A model generated the notes under the pieces. That model made no database searches. It saw only the letters and a program-made list of their open reading frames with translations, and was not told the origin of the DNA. From IMG/VR virus record IMGVR_UViG_3300036770_007283: a DNA stretch of 64,000 nucleotides, one strand, 5' to 3'. Source of the DNA: a virus (taxonomy: Duplodnaviria > Caudoviricetes). The translations under genes were made by a program, and so were the position numbers. This document shows positions 11,285-41,089 of this stretch, piece by piece. Position 1 is the first letter of the stretch, and the number at the start of each line of letters is the position of its first letter.

Positions 11285-11287
11285 AGC

Positions 11288-21401: not shown

Positions 21402-22814
21402 CTAGCGTCTTCGCTTATCAATAATCGAAGTTCTAGCGGTAGTGCCTTGAAGTTTATTAAAGCCAGAATTCTTGTTTTTAATCTTTCTCTCAATCTCGTC
21501 TTTAACAGAGCTAACCTTATCTTCACCAAGGTCGAGAGTCATTGCATTAGCCCTTCCCTTTTCCTTGTCAGCAAGCACTGCAGCTTGTGCTTTACTTTCT
21601 TTCTTTAGATTTTCAATACGATCTTGTGGCAGACCCAATCCCGCAAACCAACTATAAATTTTAATGCTATCATTATCCATATCATCTATAGCATAGATAC
21701 CCTGGAAGATGTTGGCACCATTAGTGGATTCTGAAATCATGGAAAAGCAATAATCAATATTGATGGCTGGAAGTTTGCTTAGTGCCTCCTGAGAACCTAA
21801 GATGATTACGCCACCAGTTCTTGTCTGTGTTAGATCAAAACCTTCTGCAAGCATATTGCTGCTTAGACTCTTCATTACAGATTCTGCTAGTGCTGTTTCT
21901 TCTAGATAATCCTCTACCTCTACCATGCCGTAAACTGAGCAATCACCACAAGAAATAATCTTTCCAAAGTCACTTGGGTCTAATGAAGTAAATTGTGATG
22001 GCTGTGAAGTTAGGGTATTAAAAATATTGATTGGTTCCACAATTGCGGAGTTGGCTGTAGACCAAAACTGGGCTTGACTTAAACCACCATAAATTTGCTC
22101 AATTCTAGCATTATCTACCACAACTAGTGATGATATTACATTTGTAGAAGTTAGTTTGGCTAATCTAGCTAGGGTTTCAATAGAATTTTTCTTGGACTGA
22201 GCATCTTCTGTGGCTTTAGGAAGAACATAAATAACGCCAATAGGCATACCTAGGCTAAATAGTAGTGGAACCATAGTATCAACAGAAGAAGAACCAGTTC
22301 CGCCACCACCTGAGATGGCTAGGTACATCATATCATTACCATCTGCGATGGCTTCAACAAACTCCGTTAGTTGTTCTGTACTTTGTTCAAAAATTTGTCT
22401 TCCTAAATCTAGATCCTTTCCAGTTCCGCCAAGACTTCCTTCCAGAAGCAGCTTTTGATTTGGGGCAACATTAATGTAAGCTAAGTCTTGAGCCGAGGTA
22501 TTAACCACGCCTGCGTCATAGCCTAGCCTATGAAATTCTTCTGCAATTCTAGAGCCGGCCTGACCTACACCAATAACACCCATATTAATGCTAACTGTTC
22601 TTTTGGAAACTACTTCTGGCATAACATCACCTTCCACTTTGTTTTTTTCAGCAAGTTTAGCTTTAAGAGCTGCTAGTTTTTCTGGATCCACTTTCCTCTC
22701 CACTTTTTGTTCTGAAAATGCTGCTAAAAGTTTGTCGTTTTCTTCTGATATTTCTTCTGAAGATTTATTTTTAAATGCTGCATCATTTTCTTTAACTATT
22801 ACTTTTTCTGACAT
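21402..22814 (-). CDS. Tubulin/FtsZ-superfamily GTPase (TubZ/PhuZ/CetZ-like)
   Basis: GVIGVGQAGSRIAE, VNTSAQD, GGTGKD, signature GGGGTGS, VVDN, T7-like LDPSDF; basic C-terminus IIDKRRR. Confidence 0.9.
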   Translation of the reverse strand: MSEKVIVKENDAAFKNKSSEEISEENDKLLAAFSEQKVERKVDPEKLAALKAKLAEKNKVEGDVMPEVVSKRTVSINMGVIGVGQAGSRIAEEFHRLGYDAGVVNTSAQDLAYINVAPNQKLLLEGSLGGTGKDLDLGRQIFEQSTEQLTEFVEAIADGNDMMYLAISGGGGTGSSSVDTMVPLLFSLGMPIGVIYVLPKATEDAQSKKNSIETLARLAKLTSTNVISSLVVVDNARIEQIYGGLSQAQFWSTANSAIVEPINIFNTLTSQPSQFTSLDPSDFGKIISCGDCSVYGMVEVEDYLEETALAESVMKSLSSNMLAEGFDLTQTRTGGVIILGSQEALSKLPAINIDYCFSMISESTNGANIFQGIYAIDDMDNDSIKIYSWFAGLGLPQDRIENLKKESKAQAAVLADKEKGRANAMTLDLGEDKVSSVKDEIERKIKNKNSGFNKLQGTTARTSIIDKRRR

Positions 22815-23814
22815 AATGCTCCTCGTATACTTTTTTCATTTGTTCATAGATTGTTTCACTTGAAACCTTTGCAATAGGGACTAGGGAACCATCCCATTCG
22901 TAATTAGATACCTTACACAAGTATTTAGTATTAACTGAATTCATGGGGGGATAATCCGTGGTTATAATGTCGCAACCGCTAGCTGCCGCCTCGTAAAGAC
23001 TTAAGCCCAAGCCTTCACGGCTAGAAGGTGCTACTACGCAATTAACCATTTTATAAATGGCAGCAATTTCATTTCTATCTAGTATTTGATTAGAAACTTT
23101 TATGTTATCTACTTTGTTATCAGGATAGTTGCCTGTAATAATTAAATTTACAGGATATTGGTCCTTTGACTCTTGTGAAAGCTTTAAAAAGGCCTGAACT
23201 ACTGCTTGTGTATTTTTACTAGAGTAATTATTATTTAAAGAAGCTTGGTGGTAAAAGTAAAATTGATTGGGGTATCCTCGATTATTGCTATTAAAAAGAT
23301 CTTCATCTACGTAATTCCAGTTTATCCGTTCTAAGTTTTTATATCCGGCACGATTAAATGTATGCCAAGTATATTCCGTCAAGCACCAAACTTTATCAAA
23401 GACATTATAACTCATTTTATTGAAATGATGTAGTGGTACCCATTCTAGCATAGGAACATCTACCACTTTAACCTTATTTCTTTTGGCTTCGTTAATCCAC
23501 CCAAGATCTGTCATAGATGTTTCCAAAGAAACAATAAGATTGGTTTTTTGTTTCTCTACCGCATCTTGAACCACCTCATTTTTCTTTAATCCATCTCTTT
23601 TAAATTTAAAAAGGTGTGGTACTGGACCTTTTACCTCTGGATATTCTAGATAATATCTTCCCTGTTTTTTTTCAAAGATTGGCTTAGGGATTAGGGATAC
23701 ATTATGTCCTGCCGCCAATAATGTTTTATAGAGGCTTAGACCAAGGTATAATAATCCAGAATCATGACTGTAAGTTTTAATCAGGATATTCTCATAATCC
23801 TTTAGTTCTAGCAT
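22792..23814 (-). CDS. GT-B (GT4-like) glycosyltransferase
   Basis: VVAPSSREGLGLSLYEAAASGCDIITTD. Confidence 0.88.
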   Translation of the reverse strand: MLELKDYENILIKTYSHDSGLLYLGLSLYKTLLAAGHNVSLIPKPIFEKKQGRYYLEYPEVKGPVPHLFKFKRDGLKKNEVVQDAVEKQKTNLIVSLETSMTDLGWINEAKRNKVKVVDVPMLEWVPLHHFNKMSYNVFDKVWCLTEYTWHTFNRAGYKNLERINWNYVDEDLFNSNNRGYPNQFYFYHQASLNNNYSSKNTQAVVQAFLKLSQESKDQYPVNLIITGNYPDNKVDNIKVSNQILDRNEIAAIYKMVNCVVAPSSREGLGLSLYEAAASGCDIITTDYPPMNSVNTKYLCKVSNYEWDGSLVPIAKVSSETIYEQMKKVYEEHYVRKSNS

Positions 23815-24502
23815 TTATTCTCTCCATAGAATCTTTTTTGATTTCTTCTATATTTGAAAGATGATTTTTTTGTATATCTTCCCGTTGCGTCAGCCTATTA
23901 CTACCACGCACTATTCTGTAAAAATATAAGACTTTATGAATATATTTAATTGGATATAATTCAGATATATGTAGCCAAGTTGCATAATCTTCACCGATCC
24001 AATACTTTTCATTAAAGCCGCCAATTTCTTTTAAAACATCCCTTCTTACCGTGGTGGAACCTGATGCAACCAAATTAATCTTCATCAAAGATTGGTGATT
24101 AACTTTAATACTCATAGGATAAAATGGTTTCATTAATCTACCGTTGGCAAAAATTTGGTAATTGCCACAGGTCATGCCTATGTCCTTATTCTGTTTGAAC
24201 TCTTCAACAGAATAAAAAATTTTATCCTGGTTCATAATGTCATCATCATCTAAGAAGCTTACTAGATCCCCACTCGTATTTTTGATGCCAAAATTTCTGG
24301 CAGCCGCTGGCCCAGAGTTTTGTTCTAGCCTAAGATAGTTAAGTTTTGGGTATTTCTTTTTGACAAAATCTATCTTATTTTCAGAAGCATCATCCACAAT
24401 ATTGATGGTGATATTTTTATAACTTTGTGCCAAGCAACTATCTATAGCTTCAAAGATATAAGCGTTTGGATTATGTGTTGGAATAACAATATCTACTTTC
24501 AT
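23792..24502 (-). CDS. GT2 family glycosyltransferase
   Basis: VDIVIPTHN, IVDDAS, NSGPAAARNFG, FLDDDD, IGGFNE...EDY. Confidence 0.93.
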   Translation of the reverse strand: MKVDIVIPTHNPNAYIFEAIDSCLAQSYKNITINIVDDASENKIDFVKKKYPKLNYLRLEQNSGPAAARNFGIKNTSGDLVSFLDDDDIMNQDKIFYSVEEFKQNKDIGMTCGNYQIFANGRLMKPFYPMSIKVNHQSLMKINLVASGSTTVRRDVLKEIGGFNEKYWIGEDYATWLHISELYPIKYIHKVLYFYRIVRGSNRLTQREDIQKNHLSNIEEIKKDSMERINARTKGL

Positions 24503-25420
24503 TTAATTCTCTAGGTATTTCTTTATATAATTTTTTGCCGTATCTGTAAAGTTATTTTTAATAAAGTTAATTGCGCCATTCTTAAGTTGTGTATAAAGCA
24601 AATTATTTTCCATAATTTCAGTGATTGCTTCACAATAGGAACCTATATCACGATTTGTAATAATTCCGGTTTTATAATTCTCACCCAGCAGATAAATTTT
24701 AGGATGTGTAACAGATGGGAGGCCGCTACACCAGCTTTCGCATAATGCTAATCCCATAGTCTCACTTAAAGAAGTTGAAAAGTATAAGTGACAGTCTTTT
24801 GCTTTACTTACATGTTCTAAATAGTGATATGGTTGTGGATATCCAATAAATTCAAACTCATATCTTTTTAAAATTTTAGAAACTTCTAGTCCAAAGTTTA
24901 TATCTTTTACTAAATGATAACTATTACCCTTCCATAAAATTCTTCCATTATCTCTGCCGGATGGTGCCCATAATTCTTGATCTGGTCCTACCATTAGAAC
25001 ATCGAACTTAGAAATATCTATATTATACTTCTTGGAAAGCAAAAACTTAAGTCTTTCGTTGACAACTAAAATTTTATCATATTTAGCATATTCAAGAAAG
25101 GTTCGCTCTTCGGAAGAGACGCCATCGATCACATTAGGACCAATAATTTTTTGGCCTTGAGCCATATTAATCAGCCTAATAAAATCATTATCTAGCCCAC
25201 TCCATTGATGAACTATTTTAGATTTTTTTATACTGTTTGGTGCCTTTTCAGAACTTAGGGGGTTAACACTTTGATCCCAAGATTTTAACTTAGAAAAAAC
25301 TTCGACAGTTACTCCTAATGCTCTTAAATCTTTTACAAAGTTAGATAGACAGATGCCGGGGCCATTTGCATAGCGCCCGGCATTACCATAATTAAAGGTA
25401 AGGAAAGTTACATCTGGCAT
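24503..25420 (-). CDS. GT4-like glycosyltransferase
   Basis: FSTSLSETMGLALCESWCSGLPSV. Confidence 0.85.
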   Translation of the reverse strand: MPDVTFLTFNYGNAGRYANGPGICLSNFVKDLRALGVTVEVFSKLKSWDQSVNPLSSEKAPNSIKKSKIVHQWSGLDNDFIRLINMAQGQKIIGPNVIDGVSSEERTFLEYAKYDKILVVNERLKFLLSKKYNIDISKFDVLMVGPDQELWAPSGRDNGRILWKGNSYHLVKDINFGLEVSKILKRYEFEFIGYPQPYHYLEHVSKAKDCHLYFSTSLSETMGLALCESWCSGLPSVTHPKIYLLGENYKTGIITNRDIGSYCEAITEIMENNLLYTQLKNGAINFIKNNFTDTAKNYIKKYLEN

Positions 25421-25424
25421 GTGT

Positions 25425-25754
25425 CTAGAATGTTACACCTGTGTTTTTAATAATAAACTGGTCCAAGCTTTCTTTGTTTTTGAAGCCAGTCATATAATCT
25501 ACTTGTTTTCCATTTCTAAAAGCAATTAGGTGTGGTACGCTAATAATATTATATTTTGCAGCAATCTCTGGGTAGTTTTGAATATTTAATTTGGCAATAT
25601 GAATATCGCCTTCTGATTTTTGTGAAATAAAGTCTAAGTGGTTTGCAAGTGCCTTGCATGGCATACAGAATGTGGCCCAAAAATCTATAATAGAAACTTC
25701 TTTTGATTTAATAAAGTCTTCAATGGTTTCGGCAGTTAATTCTGTGATGTACAT
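25425..25754 (-). CDS. Thioredoxin
   Basis: IIDFWATFCMPCK, KLNI, ISVPHL, FRNGK. Confidence 0.9.
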   Translation of the reverse strand: MYITELTAETIEDFIKSKEVSIIDFWATFCMPCKALANHLDFISQKSEGDIHIAKLNIQNYPEIAAKYNIISVPHLIAFRNGKQVDYMTGFKNKESLDQFIIKNTGVTF

Positions 25755-25762
25755 TCTCCCTC

Positions 25763-25975
25763 CTAATTTAGGGCGTAATTATCGATAGACATATCTTCTA
25801 TGATCATACTCAAGATATCAGCCTTTTCTTCGGCAGATAACTTGTCAAAGTTGTCAAACATTTCTCTTGCCAATTTATTGGCAACTATAATTTTGACTTG
25901 CTCTTCAGTTTTTACATTTTCATAAGCTTTTAATACAGTTAAACAATCCTCAATCTCTTGTTTTGTCAGGAACAT
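25763..25975 (-). CDS. Hypothetical protein (70 aa)
   Basis: Co-oriented small ORF; no motif recognised. Confidence 0.6.
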   Translation of the reverse strand: MFLTKQEIEDCLTVLKAYENVKTEEQVKIIVANKLAREMFDNFDKLSAEEKADILSMIIEDMSIDNYALN

Positions 25976-26138
25976 TATATTCTCCCGATTCTACCAAACC
26001 CTCTGAGTCTTCGGTTTCACTAACTAGGTCATCTACGGTATATCTTACCTTTTCTTTATTGGATGCCTGCTTATTATTTAAATCTTTAACAATTTTATCT
26101 TTAAACACTTTGGTTTCACCATCTTTAATAAAAGCCAT
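25950..26138 (-). CDS. Hypothetical protein (62 aa)
   Basis: AAGGAG SD upstream of the ATG; no motif recognised. Confidence 0.65.
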   Translation of the reverse strand: MAFIKDGETKVFKDKIVKDLNNKQASNKEKVRYTVDDLVSETEDSEGLVESGEYNVPDKTRD

Positions 26139-26229: not shown

Positions 26230-27198
26230 TTACGCAGTATGGTAGTCAAACAAATACATCTCTTTTAATAGATCTTTCCAATTATATTCCGGCTCCCATC
26301 CCAAAGCATTCTTAGCTAAGGATGGGTTACCTAGTAAGTAAGGTACATCTGATGGCCTCATATATCTGGGGTCTTGTTCGTAAACCTGATTGAAATCTAA
26401 ATCGGCTAACTGACAGACATACTCCAGCATTTCCCTAATCGTTGCTCCATCACCTGTTGCAACAACAAAATCCCTTGGGTTCTCCTGTTGCAGCATTAAA
26501 TACATTGCCCTAACAAAATCTTTGCTATGACCCTCATCCCTAAATGGCTCTAAGTTTCCCATTTTAAGTTTGTTTTTTAAGCCCAGTTTAATGGCAGCAA
26601 CACCGTGTGTAATTTTTCTAGTTGCAAAATCAAGGCCTCTTCTAGGGCTGCTGTGATTATGCAGGATCCCATTACAAGCATAAAGCCCATATGATTCCCT
26701 GTAGTTTCTAACGGCCCAGTACGCTGCCAATTTGGCCACTGCATAAGGCGACCTAGGGTTAAGGCTGGAAGATTCACTATAACCTTCCTTGGGGCAGCTT
26801 AGACCACCAAACAACTCGCTAGTACTTGCTTGATAGTACCTGGTTGATGGTGAAACTTGCCTAATTGCATCAAGTTGTGTGATTACAGCAGTAGCATTAG
26901 TTGTAAAAGTTTTAACAGGATTTATAAATGATTGACCTACGTGTGATTCCGCTGCTAAGTTATAAAATTCATGTGGTCGATAATCATAAATAACTCTGTA
27001 TATAAAGGTTGGATCGCAAATATCACCATAGATTAATTTAAAGTTTTTATCTTGAAGGCACTTTTTAATATTTGCTGATTCTTGATTGGTGCTACTCCTG
27101 CGTGTTACACCTATAACATTATAGCCTTTGGATAAAAGCAATTCAGCAAGATAAGAACCATCCTGACCACAAACACCGGTAATAATAACATTAAGCAT
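26230..27198 (-). CDS. gmd: GDP-mannose 4,6-dehydratase
   Basis: ITGVCGQDGSYLAE, NLAAESHV, YQASTSELFG, PRSPYAVAK, GILHNHSSPRRG, LGWEP. Confidence 0.95.
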   Translation of the reverse strand: MLNVIITGVCGQDGSYLAELLLSKGYNVIGVTRRSSTNQESANIKKCLQDKNFKLIYGDICDPTFIYRVIYDYRPHEFYNLAAESHVGQSFINPVKTFTTNATAVITQLDAIRQVSPSTRYYQASTSELFGGLSCPKEGYSESSSLNPRSPYAVAKLAAYWAVRNYRESYGLYACNGILHNHSSPRRGLDFATRKITHGVAAIKLGLKNKLKMGNLEPFRDEGHSKDFVRAMYLMLQQENPRDFVVATGDGATIREMLEYVCQLADLDFNQVYEQDPRYMRPSDVPYLLGNPSLAKNALGWEPEYNWKDLLKEMYLFDYHTA

Positions 27199-27517
27199 TC
27201 TTAGTACGCTCCTTAAATCTTAGGACTTCATTTTTAAAATCTAAATATCTAAGCTTAGATAGCTCTTCCAAGCTATTGATATTAAACAAGATATAATCTT
27301 TGTCATCCTGGGTGAAGTCTTCAGAAGATAGAAACCACTCTAATCCGTCTGGCTCTTTTAAATATCTAAGCCTTGAGGATATTATGGAAAACTTTATCAT
27401 ATCCCGTCTTTCTGTGGGAGATTTTTCTTTTAATTCTGGGAGACTAGATTTTTTAACTATATGCATGGAACAACACCCTGGCAAACTTACCATACCGGGT
27501 GTTGTAAAATAGAACAA
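27191..27517 (-). CDS. Hypothetical protein (108 aa)
   Basis: Fills the gap between the epimerase and gmd; start uncertain. Confidence 0.6.
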   Translation of the reverse strand: MFYFTTPGMVSLPGCCSMHIVKKSSLPELKEKSPTERRDMIKFSIISSRLRYLKEPDGLEWFLSSEDFTQDDKDYILFNINSLEELSKLRYLDFKNEVLRFKERTKNA

Positions 27518-27521
27518 TAGG

Positions 27522-28457
27522 TTAATCAGTATTTTTAATATACCAGTTAATAGTTTCTTTTAAGCCATCCTCAATATCAACTAGGGGTGTATATCCAAGT
27601 ATTTCTTTTGCTTTAGATATATCAGCCTGTGAGCAGGGTACATCGCCTACTCTTTCTTCAAAATGTTTGGGTGGCAAAGCATTCATCATTTTTACTAGAT
27701 CATTAATGCTAGTTTTTTTACCGCATCCTACATTGAAAACTTCACCGTTTAATGGTTTGCTATGGTTAGATGCTTTTACAATAAAATCAACAACGTTGTC
27801 TATATAAGTAAAGTCTCTGAAGAAACTTCCATCACCATAAATAATTGGGCTTTTGGAATCTTTTATTGACTGACAGAAGGCTGATATGACGGATGCGTAA
27901 GGTGAATCGCCATATTGATTTGGACCAAATATATTGAAAAATCTCATGCTTACAGTGTCTAAACCATAAAAGTAAGAATACATTTTACAATATTCTTCTC
28001 CAATCATTTTTTGTAAGGCATAAGGACTCTTGGGCGCTAAGGTTATACTTTCTGGTGTTGGCAGTATTTTTGATCCGCCATAAACTGAGCTGGAAGATGC
28101 AAAAATAACTTTTTTTATATAATACTTTCTTGCAAGATCTAGGATTTTGAGCGTTCCCGTAACGTTTGTATCATTAGTTTCTAGTGGATTCTCTACAGAA
28201 TACGATACTCTTGGGATTGCTGCCAAATGTATAATTTGCTCTATATTTGAATGATTCTTAAAAATTTCATTCATCTTATTATCATCTAAGATGTTTGCAT
28301 TATAAAATAAAAAATTATTTTTAATATTATCTATATTTGATTCCCGACCACTTCTAAGATTGTCAACACCAACAACATTCCAGCCAATACCTGCTAGATG
28401 TTTTGATAGATTGCTTCCTATAAATCCTGCCGCACCAGTAATCAAAACAGTTTTCAT
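27522..28457 (-). CDS. NAD-dependent nucleotide-sugar epimerase/dehydratase (extended SDR, WbpP/GalE-like)
   Basis: TGAAGFIGS, HLAA, ASSSSVYG, YALQK, RFFNIFGP, RDFTY. Confidence 0.93.
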   Translation of the reverse strand: MKTVLITGAAGFIGSNLSKHLAGIGWNVVGVDNLRSGRESNIDNIKNNFLFYNANILDDNKMNEIFKNHSNIEQIIHLAAIPRVSYSVENPLETNDTNVTGTLKILDLARKYYIKKVIFASSSSVYGGSKILPTPESITLAPKSPYALQKMIGEEYCKMYSYFYGLDTVSMRFFNIFGPNQYGDSPYASVISAFCQSIKDSKSPIIYGDGSFFRDFTYIDNVVDFIVKASNHSKPLNGEVFNVGCGKKTSINDLVKMMNALPPKHFEERVGDVPCSQADISKAKEILGYTPLVDIEDGLKETINWYIKNTD

Positions 28458-28475
28458 AAATATTTTTCCTTTTAA

Positions 28476-29309
28476 TTAATCTTTTCTCATTTTATTTCTT
28501 TCAGAAATACAAGAATCTATGATAGAGTTTGGTGTACCCATTCTTTTCATGAAATGGTTTAAGGCATTAGTATCTTTTGGAAAGCAAGCTCCACCATAAC
28601 TCAACTGCCCATCTAAGCCTATTGTTGTATGCATAGGATTTATCCATCCATTTTTAAGCATCATAGACTTTACAGTAGGATAATCTGCACCAATTCTCTG
28701 GCAAAGTAAATAAAATTCATTAAATACTTGTACTTTAATTGCATAAAAATTATTACAGAATAATTTCATTGCCTCTGATTCTTCTGAATTACATATTGAT
28801 ATTTCTGCTTCGGGATATAAATCTTTATATAATTCTGATAAAATATCTGTACTTTGATACTGAGTACTAATCCCCTTTGAATCTTGTGTGGCCACAAGTC
28901 TATGGTGTCCAATTACAATATGCTTTTGACTATCAAAATCTTCAAATGCAGTTCTGGCGGTTAAAAATTCCGGATTGTGACAAATATTTAAGTGGTAACT
29001 TTCTGAAAGTAATTTTGTGGTTCCTGGCTCAACTGTGCTTTTTATAACTACTAAGCCCTGATACCTTCTGTAAGGGTCTCTGGAGTTGGATAAGAAGCTT
29101 AAGTTTTCTTGTAATGCGGATATATTAAAACCATGGCCTTCCACGTATGGTGTTGGTAAGCATAAGAATACAACATCAGTATTTAAAATGGATTCAATAT
29201 TCCCAATACCTTTAAATTTGTCATATACTAAAACTTTTTGACCTTTTAATTCAAAACTTTTTTTAAGTGCGCCGCCGACAAAACCTGCCCCTATTAGACC
29301 AACCTTCAT
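28476..29309 (-). CDS. UDP-glucose/GDP-mannose dehydrogenase family, short form lacking the C-terminal domain
   Basis: GAGFVGG, CLPTP, KSTVEPGT, NPEFL, YGGACFPKD; only 277 aa. Confidence 0.9.
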   Translation of the reverse strand: MKVGLIGAGFVGGALKKSFELKGQKVLVYDKFKGIGNIESILNTDVVFLCLPTPYVEGHGFNISALQENLSFLSNSRDPYRRYQGLVVIKSTVEPGTTKLLSESYHLNICHNPEFLTARTAFEDFDSQKHIVIGHHRLVATQDSKGISTQYQSTDILSELYKDLYPEAEISICNSEESEAMKLFCNNFYAIKVQVFNEFYLLCQRIGADYPTVKSMMLKNGWINPMHTTIGLDGQLSYGGACFPKDTNALNHFMKRMGTPNSIIDSCISERNKMRKD

Positions 29310-29398
29310 TAAGCACCTCTAATAATTTCTCGTAATATTTATTACATAAAATTAATTATACTATAAACATATTATATCTTATTATTTTAAACTTAGCC

Positions 29399-30310: not shown

Positions 30311-30312
30311 GA

Positions 30313-31802: not shown

Positions 31803-31824
31803 ATTAAATACTCCTACCTTATAT

Positions 31825-32976: not shown

Positions 32977-33449
32977 TAATAGATTGACTGTTGTGGTGGT
33001 AAAACCAAATCTTTCTTAAGAACTTCTATTTTATAATCATTTATAAATAATTTTTCAAATGAATCAAAACTTTTATTTAGACATGAAAAAATGAAATGAT
33101 TGAAATTTTTTTGTATATATAAGTTGAAACTTTTTTTATCATCTATGTATTCTAATAGTCCAAGAAAAAGTCCTAACCCTGGATCTTCAATATTAGGCCT
33201 ATCTATATTTAAATCAACTAAAATTGTTAAATCTGTATGTTTAATACTATCAAACCCAAAATATTTTATATCTTTATTTATAAAGTTAACAATGTTTGAG
33301 TCACCACAACCAAAATCATATAGATATTCTGGATTTACTTCGTTTATTTTTTTTGCTGCCGTCATCATTCTTTCTGACCAATCTAAACCTTTGTTAGCTG
33401 GATAATCCTTAAGTAATTTGCAGCCTTTTTCCGCCCATCTATTTGCCAT
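32961..33449 (-). CDS. Small SAM-dependent methyltransferase-like protein
   Basis: LYDFGCGD, YFGFD, FLGLLEYI. Confidence 0.7.
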   Translation of the reverse strand: MANRWAEKGCKLLKDYPANKGLDWSERMMTAAKKINEVNPEYLYDFGCGDSNIVNFINKDIKYFGFDSIKHTDLTILVDLNIDRPNIEDPGLGLFLGLLEYIDDKKSFNLYIQKNFNHFIFSCLNKSFDSFEKLFINDYKIEVLKKDLVLPPQQSIYYCVKK

Positions 33450-33466: not shown

Positions 33467-34456
33467 TTATGCATCACATATATTTTCAAAAAATAATATA
33501 ACTTCTTCAATTCTTTTTTCATAGGTCCAATTATTAATAATTTCTTTATATAGATTTTCCGAAATATCTTTTCTTAAACTTTTATCATCTTTAATTTGTA
33601 TTATTTTTTTTGAAATATTAAAAATATTATCATCAACGATTAATCCATTGAATTTATCAACAACAATATCTCTAGACAAACCAACATGCGTAGTAATAAC
33701 TGGAATAGCGCAGGCTCCAGACTCTAACATCATCATTGGACCACCTTCAGATTTGCTTAGGCAAATAACAGCATCCAGTTTATTATACCATTTATTTAGT
33801 TCTATTCTATCCAGGTCTTTTGCAGCCTTAAGGATAACCCCAGCCATCGTGGCAGATTTACTAACCAATTCAAAATTCTTTATAGGATTATTAAAGTTTC
33901 CAGACCATCCCAGCGTAAATTTTTTATTTTCTACTAAGATATTATTTCTTTTTATACAAAAAATTTCATTATTAATTGCTTGTGATACACGAAATATATT
34001 TGGATGTAATCCTTTAAAATTTTTAATAATAAAAGAATTACAACAAGCTAATGCTTTTGTACCTTCAAAATATTTTTTGTAGGTAGTTTGCGCACCTTCA
34101 TTTACCCATTTTTCATTATTTATACACACACCAACTTTATCTAGAGGAAAATCTGTAGATAATAGCCTACCGTCCCAAATTGCTCTGTGATATAAGAAAA
34201 CAATTCCATCATATTTAGAATGATCAAAGATATTTTTTTTTCCATTTTTAGATATAAAATTTTTTTTATATTCTAAAAAGCTTTCCATATTGCTATAAAC
34301 ATTTGCATTATTTACTTCTTCATTTTTTACACTACTATATTCTTTAAGATAAAGTATCTCTATATTATACTTTTTAAAGAGAAGTTTTTTCCAATTTTGA
34401 ACGGCATCATCATATGCCCACCCCCTTACATCTACAATCAAAAGAATATTTTTCAT
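33467..34456 (-). CDS. GT4-like glycosyltransferase (paralog group A)
   Basis: VDVRGWAYD, LGWSGN, LSKSEGGPMMMLESGACAIPVITT. Confidence 0.88.
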   Translation of the reverse strand: MKNILLIVDVRGWAYDDAVQNWKKLLFKKYNIEILYLKEYSSVKNEEVNNANVYSNMESFLEYKKNFISKNGKKNIFDHSKYDGIVFLYHRAIWDGRLLSTDFPLDKVGVCINNEKWVNEGAQTTYKKYFEGTKALACCNSFIIKNFKGLHPNIFRVSQAINNEIFCIKRNNILVENKKFTLGWSGNFNNPIKNFELVSKSATMAGVILKAAKDLDRIELNKWYNKLDAVICLSKSEGGPMMMLESGACAIPVITTHVGLSRDIVVDKFNGLIVDDNIFNISKKIIQIKDDKSLRKDISENLYKEIINNWTYEKRIEEVILFFENICDA

Positions 34457-35490
34457 TAGATAATCTCTTTCATCTTTTCAATAAGCGAATTTTTATTTAA
34501 AACATTAAAAGCAACCTTATTTTTTAACAAATAAGATATTTTATTTATCCATTCTTTTTTATCATAAACATCATCACATATAAACTCAGATGGGTATGAT
34601 TCATACCACCCGCAATTTCTACTCATTAATATATTTGATCCACATAAAATTGCTTCTTTTATTGTGTTAGGTGAAGCATCATAATAGGAAGTGCATAAAA
34701 TAACTTTTGTATTTTTCATTATCTCAAGAACTTCTCTCTGCGAAGATAGGTCCCTACATTCCATATTTTTAATACCATTAAAAATTGAAGAATTCTTACC
34801 AACCACAATTTTTTTGTTCATATCAAACTTTTTTTCTGACATAATATTTATTGCTAATTCAGAATTTTTAACCTTCCTAGAAAGGTTGGAGCAAATAAAG
34901 GCCAAATCCCATTTTCTATCTGTGAAATTTTCACCCAGACAAATATCGTTGTTAAATGCCAAAGAAGTGTCTATGGGGTTTGAAAACTTCTTATTTTCAC
35001 CATAATTTTTAATTAATAATTTTTTACCTAACCAACTATTTGGAACCACCAAATCAGAAGCCCTGATACAAGCCTCTTCCTGCTTGAATCTAATGATATT
35101 AAAACCAGATAGATATTTTTGCGCAGAAATTCCATTTTCTGAAGCAGATGACATTTGAGGTGACCCAGTTACCAAATACACTATTTTTACATTAGGAAAT
35201 AATTCTTTAGAAATAACAGGTGCTGCATAATTTTTTCCAAAAATGACATCTGGTAATCCGCCCAACTGCCTAGTTATTAGCCTATTTAAAATACTCTTCT
35301 TATCCTTACCTGGATCAAACTTCCAGACACCACCAATTTTATCAGGATCTACATTTACCCTGCTAGATTCAAAAAATACTCCTGCAACCATATGGCCAAA
35401 ACTTCTAAGATATTTTATTAAGGCATAGCTGTTGGTTGCTGCACCGCCATAATAAGGATATTGTGTACTTGTTATAAGAATTCTAGCCAT
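34456..35490 (-). CDS. GT4-like glycosyltransferase
   Basis: YYGGAATN, RKVKN, TSYYDASPNTIKEAILCG. Confidence 0.85.
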   Translation of the reverse strand: MARILITSTQYPYYGGAATNSYALIKYLRSFGHMVAGVFFESSRVNVDPDKIGGVWKFDPGKDKKSILNRLITRQLGGLPDVIFGKNYAAPVISKELFPNVKIVYLVTGSPQMSSASENGISAQKYLSGFNIIRFKQEEACIRASDLVVPNSWLGKKLLIKNYGENKKFSNPIDTSLAFNNDICLGENFTDRKWDLAFICSNLSRKVKNSELAINIMSEKKFDMNKKIVVGKNSSIFNGIKNMECRDLSSQREVLEIMKNTKVILCTSYYDASPNTIKEAILCGSNILMSRNCGWYESYPSEFICDDVYDKKEWINKISYLLKNKVAFNVLNKNSLIEKMKEII

Positions 35491-36361
35491 AACTAATACC
35501 TAAAAATGGTTGAAATCCTTTTGATCTAGTCTTCCAAGACCACTCTTTATATATATGTTCTTTAATAATTTTTCCATACTTAGATATCAAGGCAGGATTA
35601 TTTTTATGAAATTGAATGGACTTTTTAAGTTCTTCCTTTTTAGATGCAGATGTAATTGCTCCACATTTTTTAATCTGAATTACATTCCCTACGTTGGTAG
35701 ATATAATAGACCTTCCACAAGCACCTGCTTCCAAAATAGGGTTAGGCGTACCCTCTGATTCGCTAAAACAAATTAAGGTACCAATAGAATTATAAAAGTC
35801 TAACATCTGCTTAGCGTTTAAATTATCAGACTGAAAAGCAGTTTTAAGTTGATAATCTGGACCTAAGGTTTTGAAGATATCATTTATTATATCGAATCTT
35901 TTCACTGCCCTCTTGTGATTGCCTACCCAACCAAAAACACTGCTATATTTAGAAGGTTCCGTTGTACTGTAAAAATTTTCTGTGTTGACACCGAAAGGAG
36001 TATTGTAAACCTTCTTAGGATAAGCAGGCCTAAACTCACTAAACAACAAATTACTAGAGGTACTAATAGCATCGTAATTATTTAAAACACTAGATATGCT
36101 TAGCGGTCCATTACGACCAACATGGCTAGATATTGTTGTTACCAAACGATAGTTACGCCTAGCAGATATTTTTTCACGAATATAAGTATGGATAGGCCAA
36201 TTCAAAGAATAAACTAGATCAAAATTATTAAAGTTTAAATCATTAACATCTCTAAAGTGCTTTATCAAAATATCATGTTTTGAGAAGTATTGTTTAAGAT
36301 TAGCTGCCCTATTAGCCAACGCCCAGGTATAACTATCCACAATAAACAATGCTCTAGCCAT
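35483..36361 (-). CDS. GT4-like glycosyltransferase (paralog group A)
   Basis: VDSYTWALA, FGWVGN, SESEGTPNPILEAGACG. The start at 36361 overlaps the upstream stop (TAATG). Confidence 0.88.
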   Translation of the reverse strand: MARALFIVDSYTWALANRAANLKQYFSKHDILIKHFRDVNDLNFNNFDLVYSLNWPIHTYIREKISARRNYRLVTTISSHVGRNGPLSISSVLNNYDAISTSSNLLFSEFRPAYPKKVYNTPFGVNTENFYSTTEPSKYSSVFGWVGNHKRAVKRFDIINDIFKTLGPDYQLKTAFQSDNLNAKQMLDFYNSIGTLICFSESEGTPNPILEAGACGRSIISTNVGNVIQIKKCGAITSASKKEELKKSIQFHKNNPALISKYGKIIKEHIYKEWSWKTRSKGFQPFLGISYG

Positions 36362-37278
36362 TAAATCATTCCAAAGATCTGATTCCATTTTAAAAGATAA
36401 TCTTTTATATGAAATTTTTCAATAGCAATTTGACGTGATGATAAGCTGTAATCTTTTTGCATATTTTCATTATTAATCAGCATTTTTAACCCAGTCAACA
36501 GCTCATCTTTATTATTTGATAGAATGGCAGTCTTACCATTTTTAAAGTACAAGTCTATATCAAAATTATTAGTTGATACCAATGGCATTCCGCACATCAC
36601 TGCTTCGGCACGACTTCTAGGCATTGCAGATGATTGTGTTGGGTTAAAATAAACATTGTATTTATTATATATTCTTACAAGAGCTTCCAAACTTTCTGCC
36701 ACATTATCATTTCTGTTGATGTCCGTATTTCCATGGCCCACCAAATCTATAAGCCCTAATTCATCGCTGATGCCTTTCCATAAATTATATCCCATAATTT
36801 GGGAACGCTTCTTGAAAACATTGGCAACAGTTAGGATACGATTATTTTTTTCTAAGTCTATCTTTTTAAATTCTTCAGGATCAAAACCATGAACAATATG
36901 ATAGTGATTCATTTTAGGATAGCGATGCCTGTTAGAATTTAAAACCGACAAGCAGTTCCAAACTACATGCCTACATTCTCTTGGAAATGGAAATGCATTA
37001 GTGGTTTGTACTACTGCAATAGGTTTCGCACCACGCCTAATAACATTTGTATATTTTATAGGTAGAATCGGGGAACGAATTATCACCGCATCAAAATTAA
37101 TCTTGCTAATTTCTTTTTCATAAATTAAATTAACATTACTATTTAATGGCCTGTGCATCCCATTCCAGTTTGGCTTACCACCATCAATACCCACTAGATA
37201 AAAATCATGACCAGTTTTAAAAAACTCATATTGATGACCTTGGTGACAATACCAGTCTAAAATCTTTAGTTTTTTCAT
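36361..37278 (-). CDS. GT4-like glycosyltransferase
   Basis: VHGFDP, YFNPTQSSAMPRSRAEAVMCGMPLVST. Confidence 0.85.
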   Translation of the reverse strand: MKKLKILDWYCHQGHQYEFFKTGHDFYLVGIDGGKPNWNGMHRPLNSNVNLIYEKEISKINFDAVIIRSPILPIKYTNVIRRGAKPIAVVQTTNAFPFPRECRHVVWNCLSVLNSNRHRYPKMNHYHIVHGFDPEEFKKIDLEKNNRILTVANVFKKRSQIMGYNLWKGISDELGLIDLVGHGNTDINRNDNVAESLEALVRIYNKYNVYFNPTQSSAMPRSRAEAVMCGMPLVSTNNFDIDLYFKNGKTAILSNNKDELLTGLKMLINNENMQKDYSLSSRQIAIEKFHIKDYLLKWNQIFGMI

Positions 37279-38366
37279 TTGAAATCCGAAAGCTCTCTAG
37301 AGATAATTTTAGATACAGATTCAATATCAAAGCTTTTTCCAATCTCCCTAGCTTTTTCAGCTTTATGTCCATACTTATCATGATTCTCGTAAACATCTCT
37401 AAATAACTTCATAAGATGGTTAACATCTGGATAGGCCCAATTTTGATAAGAACCATAAAGCTGGCACCAATCCATATCCACCACTGGCCCAAGAGAATGA
37501 TTTATAATGTGTGCAGACTGATCAGATAGCCATTCTGTAACACCACCATACCTTGTAACAATTATTTGCTTCTTGCTTAGCATTGCATCATGAATTGGCA
37601 TTCCCCAACCTTCACCATGATGTGAGCTAACAAAGCAGTCACCTATATTATGGAGGGCTCTAATTTCTTCTGTTTTTATAATATCTCTCATCAAATAAAT
37701 TGGAGGATAATATTTTTGATTAAGCTTTCTTTTTATCTCTAAAATATCTTGCTTAATTCCCTCATAATTGGAGCCTTTTATATTAAGTGGGTTTACTTTT
37801 AAAAGTAGAATAACCTTGTCACCCTCTTTGAAGGTCTTGTAATAAGCATTGAGTAAGGTTTTGTATCCCTTTCTATTCTGCCACTGAAAAATAGAATAAA
37901 ATTTATAAACATCATTACTAACGGTATATCCGTCTGATAAGTTTGATGGGATTACAGCTCTTTTTTCTGTATAGAAATCTTCTGATGGCGTTGGAACGAC
38001 TTTTATTTTTCCCCTAAAGCCAGCACGTTGGCAAGCCTCTTTGGTTAGATTACATGGTGCCCAAATTTCATTTAAATAACCTAAACTGCTAGCCCAAAAC
38101 CTTGGTAATCTATCTGCTTCCCAATAAAAATAACCAATTTTATAACTTTTGGACTTGTGACGATTGTAAGGTGGGCAGTGTAAGTAAAAATCTACATTTG
38201 TTATAGAGTCATAGTTATTTAAAGAATCTAATAACCCAGAGGTTCCACTTCCATTTAAAACAAACTTAGTTCTAATTCCTGACATAGAAAATGCTTTAGT
38301 AAAATTAATTACTGCATTTCCATATCCAGTATGTGTATTGGCAGGACCAAAAAACCTAACTGGCAT
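37275..38366 (-). CDS. GT4-like glycosyltransferase (paralog group B)
   Basis: TGYGNA, YFYWE, NRKGYKTLLNAYY, SHHGEGWGMPIHDAM. Confidence 0.9.
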   Translation of the reverse strand: MPVRFFGPANTHTGYGNAVINFTKAFSMSGIRTKFVLNGSGTSGLLDSLNNYDSITNVDFYLHCPPYNRHKSKSYKIGYFYWEADRLPRFWASSLGYLNEIWAPCNLTKEACQRAGFRGKIKVVPTPSEDFYTEKRAVIPSNLSDGYTVSNDVYKFYSIFQWQNRKGYKTLLNAYYKTFKEGDKVILLLKVNPLNIKGSNYEGIKQDILEIKRKLNQKYYPPIYLMRDIIKTEEIRALHNIGDCFVSSHHGEGWGMPIHDAMLSKKQIIVTRYGGVTEWLSDQSAHIINHSLGPVVDMDWCQLYGSYQNWAYPDVNHLMKLFRDVYENHDKYGHKAEKAREIGKSFDIESVSKIISRELSDFK

Positions 38367-39974: not shown

Positions 39975-39982
39975 CTTTAAAC

Positions 39983-41089
39983 CTATTTGTAAAGATCTGT
40001 AATTTTAGTGGCTGCACTTTCCCAAGTGAATTTTTGACAAGTATTTTTGGCTTCTTCTGCAAACTTTTGCTTAAGCAAAAGACTATTTCTATAAGCCATC
40101 AACATAGACTCAATAATCAACTCTTTCTTGGGGATAAATGTTTTTGCACCAGGAGACGCAATCCAATATTGGTATTTGGAACCAGCATCAATAGACTCTA
40201 CATCCATTAGTAATGAATTTTGATTATTTAAAAAGTCTAACTGCCCAGAGCATCTTGGCGCTATGACTAAATTACCTGCAGCCAACCCCTCTAATAGAGG
40301 CAATCCAAACCCTTCAGATGATGACGTGCTAATTAATGCATCGCAGGCCTTATAAAGTGGAATCATACTGGGAAGGTTTTGCTGTATGATTTCAATTCTA
40401 GGTAAACCTCCTGGACGGTCTTTATGCTTAGCTTGCAGAAGCTTTATAGCATTTCTAACGTCTATTTCAAAGTTATATGGCTTTCTATCCTTTGGCATAT
40501 CTAAGCTTGTTTTTAATACCAGGCATACATCATCCTTATCAGAGAAGGTGGTGTAGTATGCATCAATTAAAAGGTCTATATTTTTTCTGTAATGTGGGAT
40601 AGATATATTTAAAAACTTGAATTTTCTATCAGTTTTAAGCTTAAAGGTTTCTTCCGTAGAAAAATCATCTAAGTTGATGCCGTGAGGAACTACCACACAT
40701 TTAGATTCTGGCCACCCAGAGTTAACAAAAACCTCTTTTGAGAAATTGCTAGATGGCAAAACAAAATCAACATGCTTAATTGAATCTAACCACATCTTTG
40801 GCATGATTTCTGTTTCGTAATTATAAATTGCCATTTTTAGTTTAGATTTCTTTTTAAATCTAGAATAAAAATTTCTAGGCAACGTGTAGCAAATATCAAT
40901 ATCTGGAATTGCAATATCTCGATCAATCCTGGAAAGTAAATCTGGTGGGATAAAGTCTTTGCCATTGATACTTTTCAAGTATAGCTTATGGCCCTTGCTT
41001 TTAAATTGTAATAGTAAATTTCTCATAGTAATGGCCCAACTGTGATGGGTTCCCAACATAGATTCGCTTCTAATATTTAATGTAGACAA
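39983..41089 (-). CDS. GT4-like glycosyltransferase (paralog group B)
   Basis: IYNYE, VPHGI, YRKNIDLLIDAYY, SSSEGFGLPLLEGLAAG; TTG start. Confidence 0.9.
   Translation of the reverse strand: MSTLNIRSESMLGTHHSWAITMRNLLLQFKSKGHKLYLKSINGKDFIPPDLLSRIDRDIAIPDIDICYTLPRNFYSRFKKKSKLKMAIYNYETEIMPKMWLDSIKHVDFVLPSSNFSKEVFVNSGWPESKCVVVPHGINLDDFSTEETFKLKTDRKFKFLNISIPHYRKNIDLLIDAYYTTFSDKDDVCLVLKTSLDMPKDRKPYNFEIDVRNAIKLLQAKHKDRPGGLPRIEIIQQNLPSMIPLYKACDALISTSSSEGFGLPLLEGLAAGNLVIAPRCSGQLDFLNNQNSLLMDVESIDAGSKYQYWIASPGAKTFIPKKELIIESMLMAYRNSLLLKQKFAEEAKNTCQKFTWESAATKITDLYK

Follow-up and report, generated by a model that had tools for sequence, protein, structure and literature searches.

An island of approximately 18 kb for glycan synthesis lies at positions 22792-41089 of the window, meaning the whole 64,000-nucleotide stretch that was analyzed, which belongs to an uncultured giant phage. 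All of its genes are on the minus strand, directly after the tail-fiber gene. The reading we prefer, to which we give about an even chance, is that a cytoplasmic, phage-encoded pathway tied to the tail module attaches a complex acidic oligosaccharide to tail or baseplate proteins. Judging from the genes, the adjacent and conserved 1511-aa and 3273-aa proteins would be the most likely acceptors.

Gene content of the island

The island encodes 12 glycosyltransferases (GTs; Table 1). Pfam places 11 of these among GT4-like GT-B enzymes (Glycos_transf_1 or Glyco_trans_1_4; ORF starts 22792, 24503, 29399, 31825, 33467, 34456, 35483, 36361, 37275, 38367, and 39983) and one in GT2. The Pfam matches of GTs 24503, 31825, and 34456 fall slightly under the gathering score and that of 37275 is borderline; homologues of all four in relatives belong to the same Pfam families. 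The GTs are single-domain and mutually divergent, which points to a defined oligosaccharide since one enzyme per linkage fits better than a polymerase. All 12 are basic, and their N-terminal halves have a pI of 8.6-9.8.

An earlier note, made from the sequence alone, had listed about 12 GTs (11 GT-B and one GT2), Gmd, an SDR epimerase, a dehydrogenase, and a pyruvyltransferase, and Pfam and NCBIfam bear this inventory out. It had also counted two methyltransferases. MT 31209 is found by Pfam. The 162-aa ORF had no match in the Pfam search and is counted because its feature score (0.95) and structure TM (0.72-0.80) place it with class I SAM methyltransferase clusters. The thioredoxin and the two small ORFs probably have no part in the glycan pathway; in the relative G001, thioredoxin is separate from the glycan genes. 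As the note had described, there is no multi-TM protein in the island, and a Kyte-Doolittle scan predicted no TM segment in any island ORF.

Table 1. Features of the island and its flanks, by descending window position.
Feature	Position	Strand	Basis
Baseplate/wedge giant, 3273 aa	45727..55548	-	
Fiber-like protein, 1511 aa, candidate acceptor	41155..45690	-	
Promoter-like ACTAGATA ahead of first GT	41135-41142	-	
Promoter-like TTGTTA-16-TATAAT ahead of first GT	41105-41132	-	
Core GT 1, GT4, 368 aa, first gene past fiber gene	39983..41089	-	Pfam
Core GT 2, 535 aa	38367..39974	-	Pfam, AlphaFold, Foldseek/VIA
Core GT 3, GT4, 363 aa, core GT 1 paralogue (24% identity)	37275..38366	-	Pfam
Core GT 4, GT4-like, 305 aa	36361..37278	-	Pfam
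Further GT-B genes 35483, 34456, 33467, in some relatives only	33467..36388	-	Pfam
Variable low-GC cassette: 162-aa methyltransferase, GT 31825, MT 31209, pyruvyltransferase 30313, GT 29399	29399..33449	-	
162-aa ORF, motif DFGCGDS	32961-33449	-	Class I SAM methyltransferase clusters
SAM methyltransferase	31209-31802	-	Pfam
Pyruvyltransferase, PS_pyruv_trans	30313-31212	-	Pfam
Promoter-like -10 element TAGTATAAT ahead of mini-Ugd gene	29355..29363	-	
Nucleotide-sugar block: mini-Ugd, SDR 4-epimerase, 108-aa ORF, Gmd	26230..29309	-	
Mini-Ugd (UDP-glucose/GDP-mannose dehydrogenase family), 277 aa, truncated, without C-terminal domain	28476-29309	-	Pfam
SDR epimerase	27522-28457	-	Best NCBIfam matches TviC/GalE
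Gmd	26230-27198	-	Pfam, 352 bits
Thioredoxin and two small ORFs	25425..26138	-	
Thioredoxin	25425-25754	-	
Distal conserved trio: GT4-like 24503, GT2 23792, GT4 22792	22792..25420	-	
GT2	23792-24502	-	Pfam, 101 bits
Phage tubulin (TubZ/PhuZ-like), downstream slot boundary	21402..22814	-	

A conserved core beside an exchanged cassette

Synteny, a check that the earlier note had proposed, was examined on contigs picked by the fiber gene alone, of which 49 were evaluable (22 from the close clade and 27 from distant jumbo phages). Downstream of the fiber gene, 46 of the 49 carry a GT from the 39983 family. Homologues with 45-62% identity follow the gene immediately in 22/22 close-clade contigs, and homologues with 29-43% identity are found at most 10 kb downstream in 24/27 distant contigs. 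The fiber-island-tubulin order is preserved in the distant relatives, where a minimal slot of 4.5 kb consists of fiber, GT4, GT2, an unknown ORF, GT2, SDR, and tubulin. Together with the gene content, this synteny favors the tail or baseplate reading, though gene order in tail modules is conserved anyway and synteny alone is not proof of virion glycosylation.

The close clade includes contigs of up to 422 kb from marine, freshwater, and subsurface sources and keeps four core GTs. The giant, the fiber gene, and these GTs stand in the same order in Tara ocean, freshwater, and subsurface phages, at a GC content of 34% versus 44%, a constancy that speaks for a conserved acceptor and a core role and against an accessory, moron-like one. 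Among the IMG/VR clade loci, GT 38367 is kept in 17/18 and GT 36361 in 16/18; the latter is also present in the other contigs examined, and a count over all 80 related loci gave 18 loci with a match. GT 37275 has 332 homologues at E <= 1e-5, with 43-63% identity among the 120 matches listed, on contigs to 422 kb. At the other end of the island, the distal trio is syntenic in G001 (40-50% identical), and the other clade genomes all have GT 24503 (5/5). Gmd and the mini-Ugd/SDR pair turn up again in relatives.

The AlphaFold model of GT 38367 has an N-terminal, CBM-like beta-jelly-roll (residues 1-122), a disordered linker (124-175), and a GT4 GT-B catalytic part (179-515) similar to PimB'/BshA/HepE. 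Foldseek with VIA aligned the N-terminal domain to CBM4/6/16/22/36 over 117 aa (Z 12.4, rmsd 2.4), and a core GT with such a domain would suit docking on a glycoconjugate, a point in favor of the preferred reading. The structural neighbors of the GT domain (PimB', BshA, MshA, HepE, PglA, and WaaG) are generic fold matches that fail to separate acceptor types, and this counts against the tail or baseplate reading.

Relatives keep the core enzymes and swap the remainder in the manner of bacterial serotype loci. Across 10 non-redundant loci, the giant, fiber, and core GT families are present in 8-10; of the 100 ORFs past the core, 53 belong to families seen once, and no family among these ORFs occurs in more than four loci. 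The cassette behind the core holds NeuB/Kdo genes, aminotransferases, and acetyl- or sulfotransferases in relatives and pyruvyl/methyl genes here. Relatives also encode Kdo and nonulosonic acid pathways and GT25, GT8, GT10, and GT29-like enzymes. GTs 35483, 34456, and 33467 have homologues in 6/80, 3/80, and 6/80 related loci, respectively. None of these 80 loci holds a homologue of the pyruvyltransferase, MT 31209, GT 31825, or the 162-aa methyltransferase, and the pyruvyltransferase family is small (25 proteins). Variable cassettes are lower in GC, here 23-30%. Turnover of the outer part beside a fixed core is a further point in favor of tail or baseplate glycosylation.

Candidate acceptors and rival readings

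The earlier note had placed the island directly downstream of giant baseplate genes, and this stands: a gp25-like baseplate gene, a Baseplate_J protein (1105 aa), the 3273-aa giant, and the 1511-aa protein lie upstream, the giant always being upstream of the fiber gene. The 1511-aa protein contains DGY motifs (705-707; DGYxDGY at 1008-1014) and a dockerin-like segment, and the giant has Laminin_G_3-like domains and DGY clusters. The motifs are over-represented and near-invariant in both, which makes them candidate acceptor sites and supports glycosylation of these proteins. Ser/Thr-rich acceptor tracts were found neither in the structural proteins of the window nor anywhere in the complete relative; this counts against the preferred reading and sets the island apart from mycobacteriophage-type and mucin-like phage systems.

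The promoter-like elements point both ways. ACTAGATA is common to the first GT and the gp25-like baseplate gene, in support of a tail or baseplate target. In G001, the related motif TACTAGAT precedes the GT block and the fiber gene. TACTAGAT is also found ahead of the RNR gene. Exact copies of TAGTATAAT number just two in the window, each lying between genes on the coding strand; one is ahead of the helicase gene, and the one ahead of mini-Ugd is probably an internal transcription start. Downstream, GT 22792 overlaps the start of tubulin by 23 nt, the island is translationally coupled to tubulin, and replication genes follow. The position at the junction of structural and replication modules, the helicase-type TAGTATAAT and tubulin coupling of the distal half, and TACTAGAT ahead of RNR all count against the preferred reading.

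The main rival, which we consider unlikely though far from negligible, is remodeling of the host envelope. The GTs would work from the cytoplasmic side of the inner membrane. Their acceptor would be a lipid-linked molecule of the host: lipid A-core, as LOS assembly uses, or an Und-PP-sugar primed by the host. Display would use the host exporters MsbA/Lpt or a host Wzx/ABC transporter and ligase, and receptor masking would result in superinfection exclusion or prevent progeny from adsorbing to debris. GT4, GT2, Gmd, Ugd, 4-epimerase, pyruvyltransferase, and methyltransferases are a typical O-antigen/capsule/LOS gene set, the sugar-acid pathways and GT25, GT8, GT10, and GT29-like families of the relatives are typical of LOS outer cores, and a swapped center between conserved flanks is LOS/O-antigen architecture too. 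The basic pI of all GTs suits enzymes at a membrane surface, as in membrane-associated GT-B enzymes, and so weighs against the tail or baseplate reading; the helicase-type motif on part of the island also agrees with the envelope. The earlier note had taken the missing flippase as lipid independence, which does not follow because LPS-core/LOS assembly needs only peripheral GTs and host MsbA, and a phage could also make use of the Und-P machinery of its host. Missing TM genes are therefore no exclusion.

Against the envelope, priming transferases (Bac_transf, WecA-type), Wzx, Wzy, WaaA, and KpsC/S were all absent from four relatives at least 94% complete, and no protein of the complete 395-kb G001 reaches six TM segments. 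Genes for a flippase or polymerase outside the island, which the note had named as a sign of LPS or capsule modification, were thus not seen in relatives, and this absence favors tail or baseplate proteins. The core is universal and fixed after the fiber gene across phages with probably different hosts, whereas accessory exclusion genes are usually sporadic, and minimal relatives have only ~3 GTs and an SDR between fiber and tubulin. LPS turnover would probably be slow within a lytic cycle, and a lipid-linked acceptor gives no reason to expect a CBM-like domain joined by a flexible linker.

Another intracellular target is a more doubtful alternative: a phage or host protein outside the virion, a small molecule or glycolipid (BshA/MshA/PimB-like), or a polysaccharide that stays in the cytoplasm or is packaged. 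Among the closest solved structures are GT4 enzymes that act on small molecules and lipids (BshA, MshA, PimB'), though GT4 fold matches are generic. Weak GT4-conflict Pfam matches and the translational coupling to tubulin point the same way. So does a second, moraphage-like jumbo lineage (~20 IMG/VR contigs with DnaJ and PolA), in which a GT pair from the 39983/37275 family sits among DnaB, primase, RuvC, and PolA; this also counts against the preferred reading. The 'moraphages', jumbo phages of aquatic habitats, have four GT orthogroups in their core (Perez-Hernandez et al. 2025, PMC12619734); that study contains no analysis of GT target, synteny, or cassette variation. The present clade has a different fiber from that lineage and carries a tubulin. 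Conserved fiber-GT adjacency speaks against an internal target, and the 12 different GTs, the tailoring enzymes, and the fast evolution of the outer cassette imply a glycan that is large, exposed, and under selection.

The DNA glycans we know of are mono- to trisaccharides. G001 has no member of the thymidylate synthase/dCMP hydroxymethylase family, so no known handle for sugar attachment on DNA was found; a TET/JBP search of G001 also gave no match, as did all control genomes, so that search says little. Glycosylation of modified bases of phage DNA by some or all GTs is very improbable: GT-B glycosylation of phage DNA is established (T-even phages; Pyle et al., bioRxiv 10.1101/2023.12.21.572611) and the island adjoins replication genes, but 12 GTs with pyruvylation and methylation go far beyond such glycans and the GT4 family is unlike known DNA glycosyltransferases.

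The virion glycan proposed in the earlier note thus gained comparative support from fiber-GT synteny and the lack of lipid-carrier genes in relatives. The reasoning behind it needs correction because Ser/Thr-rich tags are absent, GT pairs occur in another lineage's replication block, and the distal half has a helicase-type motif and tubulin coupling. Antibody shielding, one purpose the note had suggested, is unlikely to drive selection in phages of subsurface or aquatic habitats.

Known systems and the proposed pathway

Chlorovirus (PBCV-1) capsid N-glycans and Megavirinae fibril glycans are made by cytoplasmic, virus-encoded glycosylation with viral Gmd, GTs, and methyltransferases, and they have a conserved core and clade-specific outer parts. 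The mimivirus fibril polysaccharide is pyruvylated and methylated, and the related giant virus CroV has a Kdo pathway. The island resembles these systems in Gmd, GTs, methyltransferases, and a conserved core with a variable outer part. GT 39983 has a weak sequence match to PBCV-1 B736L (PDB 3oy2; E 0.0099, just within the 0.01 limit), but these are eukaryotic giant viruses with unrelated virion proteins, and a shared GT4 fold is the extent of the orthology shown. Bacterial LOS/O-antigen/capsule loci (Campylobacter LOS classes, Wzx/Wzy clusters) share the enzyme families, low-GC variable center, conserved flanking GTs, swapped cassettes, acidic sugars (uronic acids, Kdo, and nonulosonic acids), and substitution with pyruvate and methyl groups. 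Unlike them, the island has no priming transferase, flippase, polymerase/ligase, WaaA, or KpsC/S, and it is fixed between fiber and tubulin genes in a lytic-type jumbo phage. The T4-like cyanophages P-SSM2 and S-SSM7, which are big phages from the sea, have large LPS/cell-envelope clusters of GT and sugar-nucleotide genes; we know of no tie between these and a fiber gene, and a phage collection search found no sequence relationship to the island.

Virion glycosylation is described for mycobacteriophages Che8, Corndog, and Myrna (Freeman et al. 2023, Cell Host Microbe, cited in PMC12619734). As far as that account goes, soluble phage GTs likewise adjoin structural genes, with methyltransferases in some, and act in the cytoplasm without lipid-carrier genes. 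The mycobacteriophages described there have few GTs, compared with 12 plus sugar-nucleotide enzymes here, and their targets are Ser/Thr-rich C-terminal extensions of capsid and tail-tube subunits, tracts of a kind absent from the structural proteins of the window. The island is instead tied to fiber/baseplate genes and pairs a conserved core with a swapped cassette.

From gene content and order we infer an acceptor, a sequence of steps, sugar identities, and a glycan on the virion. Gmd would supply a GDP-6-deoxyhexose precursor, and mini-Ugd with the TviC/GalE-like SDR a UDP-hexuronate of Glc/Gal configuration, possibly N-acetylated. The fiber-adjacent GT 39983 family enzyme would begin the glycan on the conserved acceptor. 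GT 38367 would bind the nascent glycan through its CBM-like domain and, with GTs 37275 and 36361, build a conserved inner core. The variable GTs (35483 to 29399) would add the outer part, which may be O-methylated by the two methyltransferases and carry a pyruvate ketal. The distal trio would lengthen the same glycan or make a second one. The core would stay the same in related phages and the outer cassette would be exchanged; the exposed glycan would therefore differ from phage to phage, like O-antigens between serotypes.

Gene content and setting of the island

The window comes from a 252,699-bp contig of a subsurface metagenome that represents an uncultured jumbo phage, and nearly all of the genes are on the minus strand. 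In transcription order, a gp25-like baseplate gene is followed by genes for a Baseplate_J protein, the 3273-aa giant protein, and the 1511-aa fibre-like protein. The glycosylation island comes next, after a gap of 66 bp. Beyond it lie a TubZ/PhuZ-like tubulin, helicases, DnaB and its loader, a PrkA-YhbH-SpoVR module, and ribonucleotide reductase (RNR).

Features of the window discussed in the text
Feature	Coordinates	Strand	Remark
gp25-like baseplate gene		-	
Baseplate_J protein		-	1105 aa
Giant baseplate/wedge protein	45727-55548	-	3273 aa
Fibre-like protein	41155-45690	-	1511 aa
Glycosylation island	22792-41089	-	41089 down to 22792
Class I methyltransferase	32961-33449	-	162 aa, motif DFGCGDS
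SAM methyltransferase	31209-31802	-	
Pyruvyltransferase	30313-31212	-	overlaps the SAM methyltransferase
Motif TAGTATAAT, copy 1	29355-29363	-	intergenic, before mini-Ugd
Mini-Ugd	28476-29309	-	nucleotide-sugar dehydrogenase
SDR epimerase	27522-28457	-	TviC/GalE-like
108-aa ORF	27191-27517	-	TTG start
Gmd	26230-27198	-	
Tubulin	21402-22814	-	TubZ/PhuZ-like
Motif TAGTATAAT, copy 2	21331-21339	-	intergenic, before helicase
PrkA-YhbH-SpoVR-like module	9561-14375	-	complete
HNH endonuclease	4085-5599	-	

An earlier note, made from the sequence only, had claimed a soluble 18-kb glycosylation island and a candidate virion glycan pathway. Its gene list is borne out by Pfam and NCBIfam: 11 GT4-like glycosyltransferases (GTs) of the GT-B type, one GT2, Gmd, an SDR epimerase, a nucleotide-sugar dehydrogenase, a pyruvyltransferase, and a SAM methyltransferase. 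The second methyltransferase that it listed is the 162-aa ORF. Hydrophobic segments are absent from all island ORFs, and the observation as a whole is confirmed. The 11 GT4-type ORFs match the families of the C-terminal Rossmann domain with the E-x7-E region (PF00534/PF13692); the gathering score of at least one family is reached or exceeded by 8 of them, and the other 3 fall just below it. The island GTs are at most 33% identical to one another and are thus not a recent tandem array; recent tandem duplication was rejected. The cassette at 29.4-34.5 kb has a GC content of 23-30%, compared to ~34% elsewhere.

The 108-aa ORF between the SDR and Gmd genes has no family match and no homologues in relatives, and it may not be a genuine gene. 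PrkA is 31-39% identical to homologues in the Thermus phages YS40 and TMA and in huge uncultured phages. The tubulin shares 66% identity with that of G001, a complete 395-kb relative, and 34-43% with those of distant relatives, and it is always downstream of the GT slot.

No terminator was found between the fibre gene and the first GT, and a scan for the sigma-70 consensus was near background (97 found, 82 expected). Motif analysis yielded two candidate promoter classes, TAGTATAAT and ACTAGATA/TACTA[AG]AT. ACTAGATA is located ahead of both GT 39983 (GTs are named by ORF start) and the gp25-like baseplate gene, and TAGTATAAT has only two exact copies in the window. In G001, which is read on the plus strand, the coding strand has 13 copies of the related motif TACTAATA; 10 of them are no more than 60 nt upstream of a start codon, among these the starts of the fibre gene and structural genes. 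TACTAGAT precedes the GT block of G001 and also the RNR gene of the window. The last GT overlaps the start of the tubulin gene by 23 nt. RNA runs searched for the sequence gave 0 matches. From the motif placement and the tubulin overlap, the island probably holds at least two transcription units.

A core tied to the fibre gene and a changing cassette

The position next to the tail genes, part of the original claim, was followed in related phages. The test was unbiased in that loci were picked by the 1511-aa protein only, and the tie of the island to the fibre gene holds. A 39983-type GT is directly downstream of the fibre in 22 of 22 evaluable close relatives. Distant jumbo phages, with 25-33% identity in the fibre and contigs reaching 472 kb, have it within 10 kb downstream in 24 of 27 cases, for a total of 46 of 49 evaluable contigs. 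In seven distant contigs the slot has a minimal form of ~4.5 kb, composed of fibre, GT4, GT2, an unknown ORF, GT2, SDR, tubulin, and helicase. The window slot is an expanded 18-kb version, and that of G001 spans 38 kb and is broken up by unrelated genes. Because distant relatives keep the ~4.5-kb form, the fibre-island-tubulin slot is old.

A second jumbo lineage of ~20 IMG/VR contigs of ~300 kb encodes DnaJ and PolA. Its members (L067, L083, L065, and L056, of ~296-298 kb, and fragments) have in their replication block a same-family GT pair accompanied by a GT2, an SDR, and DegT, and this set is flanked by DnaB, primase, RuvC, and a PD-(D/E)XK nuclease on one side and DNA polymerase A on the other. 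The tail-gene neighbourhood is thus particular to the present supergroup. No identity with the published moraphages (PMC12619734) was established; only the DnaJ/PolA lineage resembles them, unlike the clade of the window.

Relatives of the island come from uncultured phages. Megablast found 0 matches to the island among 50,697 phage records, an exact-word search of IMG/VR for the contig of the window also gave none, tblastn with the fibre and with the tubulin found nothing in cultured phages, and a protein atlas search with the fibre protein gave no usable match. The nearest GTs of cultured phages are those of Streptomyces phages (22-27% identity), which adjoin an RNR gene, and this context is uninformative. 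For GT 37275, 332 homologues pass E <= 1e-5. Those listed, 120 in number, have identities of 43-63% and come from uncultured contigs in JGI, Logan, ENA, and Tara Oceans data, the longest of them 422 kb.

Gene context was read from precomputed Pfam tables for 10 contexts and from the full sequence of G001. The order is constant in all of them: a giant protein of ~3270 aa, a protein of ~1511 aa, and then GTs of ~365, 500-536, ~365, and ~307 aa, which correspond to core GTs 39983, 38367, 37275, and 36361. Gene content diverges after the fourth core GT. G001 and marine contigs encode NeuB, a CMP-sugar synthetase, KdsA, KdsB, an SIS isomerase, FkbM methyltransferases, a sulfotransferase, and GT8-, GT29-, GT10-, and GT25-like enzymes. 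A 422-kb contig has GT2s, three hexapeptide acetyltransferases, and a DegT aminotransferase; a 405-kb contig has a 2-epimerase, a GFO oxidoreductase, DegT, and a sulfotransferase; and another contig has an AsnB-type amidotransferase and a PIG-L deacetylase. Across 10 non-redundant IMG/VR loci, 53 of 100 post-core ORFs belong to single-occurrence families and no family is found in more than 4 loci, while the giant, fibre, and core GT families are present in 8-10 of the same loci. The mini-Ugd/SDR pair, Gmd, and the distal GT trio (24503, 23792, and 22792) adjoining tubulin are also kept in relatives. For the pyruvyltransferase, methyltransferase 31209, GT 31825, and the 162-aa methyltransferase, homologues were found in 0 of 80 related loci.

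The conserved block of relatives has been invaded by homing endonucleases. The HNH endonuclease of the window has a homologue between core GTs 3 and 4 in G001 (L003:15767-17143), and another contig has LAGLIDADG genes (L029:819-1553 and 12041-12901) adjoining its fibre gene and core GTs.

Host inference from Gmd failed; its best cellular matches are ~50% identical and scattered over many phyla. Gmd at 64-67% identity is found on two short MAG contigs, L112 (NZCX01000036.1, 'Candidatus Pacearchaeota') and L113 (WLOB01000045.1, 'Actinomycetota'), and a core GT (P0092) at 48% identity to that of the window phage is also on a MAG contig. These short archaeal- and actinobacterial-labelled contigs are probably misbinned jumbo-phage contigs.

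Enzymes and candidate acceptors

Two of the enzymes are unusual, a GT4 fused to a carbohydrate-binding module (CBM) and a C-terminally truncated Ugd. In the predicted model, core GT 38367 has an N-terminal beta-jelly-roll (pLDDT 93) that resembles CBM families 4/6/16/22/36 (Z 12.4, rmsd 2.4 A, 117 residues). A disordered linker of ~50 residues is modelled between it and a retaining-type GT4 fold; this catalytic part is a GT-B fold with a TM by target of 0.72-0.78 to PimB'/BshA. The modelled architecture fits an enzyme that docks on a glycoconjugate. The mini-Ugd has the N-terminal and central domains, the Rossmann motif, NPEFL, and the catalytic GGACFPKD Cys. The C-terminal nucleotide-sugar-binding domain is absent from it and from its homologues of 264-283 aa (L004:16165-17016, L027:18656-19471, and L028:19927-20721), which share ~50-56% identity across the clade. 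The TviC/GalE-like SDR usually follows it there.

An anionic component is encoded in every cassette variant: uronic acid and pyruvate in the window, and Kdo, nonulosonic acid, or sulfate in the others. On a 1.67-Mb cellular contig, the 481-aa protein P0132 is a methyltransferase-pyruvyltransferase fusion that mirrors the two overlapping genes of the island. Its neighbours include multi-domain GTs of 996 aa and 1074 aa, one with a faint sub-threshold TPR match, and a flippase is absent within 20 kb.

Ser/Thr-rich tracts (windows of at least 45-50% Ser+Thr) are absent from the structural proteins of the window and from the real ORFs of G001, so the mucin-like or C-terminal-tag acceptor model of other phages is inapplicable. 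The two giant tail proteins are enriched ~tenfold in DGY motifs, with 4 observed and 0.3 expected in the 1511-aa protein and 8 observed and 0.7 expected in the 3273-aa protein. DGY705, followed by a conserved NF[ST], and DGYxxDGY (1008-1014) are near-invariant among 17 homologues of 38-56% overall identity. A dockerin-like match abutting one DGY is weak (E 0.0025, below the Pfam cut-off). The DGY motifs could be acceptor or modification sites and could equally be Ca-binding or structural turns.

Possible targets of the proposed glycan and their significance

In the best-supported reading, to which we give an even chance, the pathway would run in the cytoplasm, need no lipid carrier, and be tied to the tail module. 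Tail or baseplate proteins would receive an inner glycan that is conserved and an outer one that is specific to the phage.

The main rival, which we consider rather unlikely, is that the GTs modify a host lipid-linked acceptor that is then exported by host machinery. All 12 GTs have a basic computed pI (8.1-9.5); the values are neutral for the sugar-nucleotide enzymes and acidic for the virion proteins (4.4-4.9). The basic pI is compatible with this rival, for example with action on lipid A-core and export by host MsbA, though unspecific; it suits either action at a membrane surface or binding to acidic proteins or glycans. Speaking against a host acceptor are the negative searches for lipid-carrier enzymes; flippase or polymerase genes elsewhere had been named in the earlier note as the signs of LPS or capsule modification. 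Priming transferases of the Bac_transf or WecA/MraY type are absent from the window and were not found above threshold in six relatives, four of them at least 94% complete. In these four, Wzx and Wzy_C gave nothing above threshold, and proteins with at least six TM segments are absent from G001. Searches for the Kdo transferases WaaA (GT30) and KpsC/S in Kdo-pathway relatives gave only sub-threshold fragments (13.5 and 19.2 bits). The rival survives the missing flippase because LOS-type assembly requires none.

Less likely than a host acceptor are other intracellular targets, which we regard as improbable. PDB sequence and fold matches of the GTs do not discriminate the acceptor type. DNA glycosylation is very improbable and was rejected, since no enzyme that makes a hydroxymethyl-pyrimidine or another handle was found in G001. 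That genome has no member of the thymidylate synthase/hydroxymethylase family (Thymidylat_synt). Tet_JBP had no match there either, a result of little weight because the search came up empty in every control genome too.

Among known systems, virion glycosylation in mycobacteriophages and the glycosylation clusters of giant viruses come closest to the island. Like the mycobacteriophage type, it has GTs that the phage itself encodes beside its virion genes, but Ser/Thr-rich acceptor extensions on virion proteins were not found. Compared to both systems, its own features are 12 GTs, an O-antigen-like conserved core with a swapped cassette, a CBM-fused GT, no Ser/Thr tags, and a wide uncultured jumbo-phage group. 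Wzx/Wzy- or ABC-transporter polysaccharide loci differ in their priming transferase, flippase or permease, and polymerase or ligase; the first was not found in the window or the relatives searched, and the others were not found in the island or those relatives.

To our knowledge, virion glycosylation of this kind has been shown only in a few mycobacteriophages and eukaryotic giant viruses. Should the glycan sit on the virion, no larger or more modular system of phage self-glycosylation would be known to us, and the phenomenon would extend to a globally distributed jumbo-phage group. Surface sugars would be varied by cassette exchange, with implications for host recognition, for the stability of the particle, and for large-phage ecology. 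If the host envelope is modified instead, lytic phages would have in the island a new, transporter-free means of rewriting LPS-like glycolipids. Under either reading, the four-GT core and the fibre-adjacent GT are concrete proteins for biochemistry.

More tentatively, and at less than even odds, the island may be a phage 'serotype locus' in a wide, wholly uncultured jumbo-phage supergroup. An ancient GT module linked to the tail-fibre gene would have grown into islands of 5-38 kb that place bacterial-type acidic glycans (uronic acids, Kdo, nonulosonic acids, and pyruvylated or methylated sugars) on the tail apparatus, with outer cassettes exchanged between phages. If so, diversifying selection would act on the virion glycan, which could be bound by host lectins or glycan-uptake receptors, or could shield the particle from factors of the host or the environment. 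Phage particles, and not just their hosts, would then show sugar-based antigenic variation.
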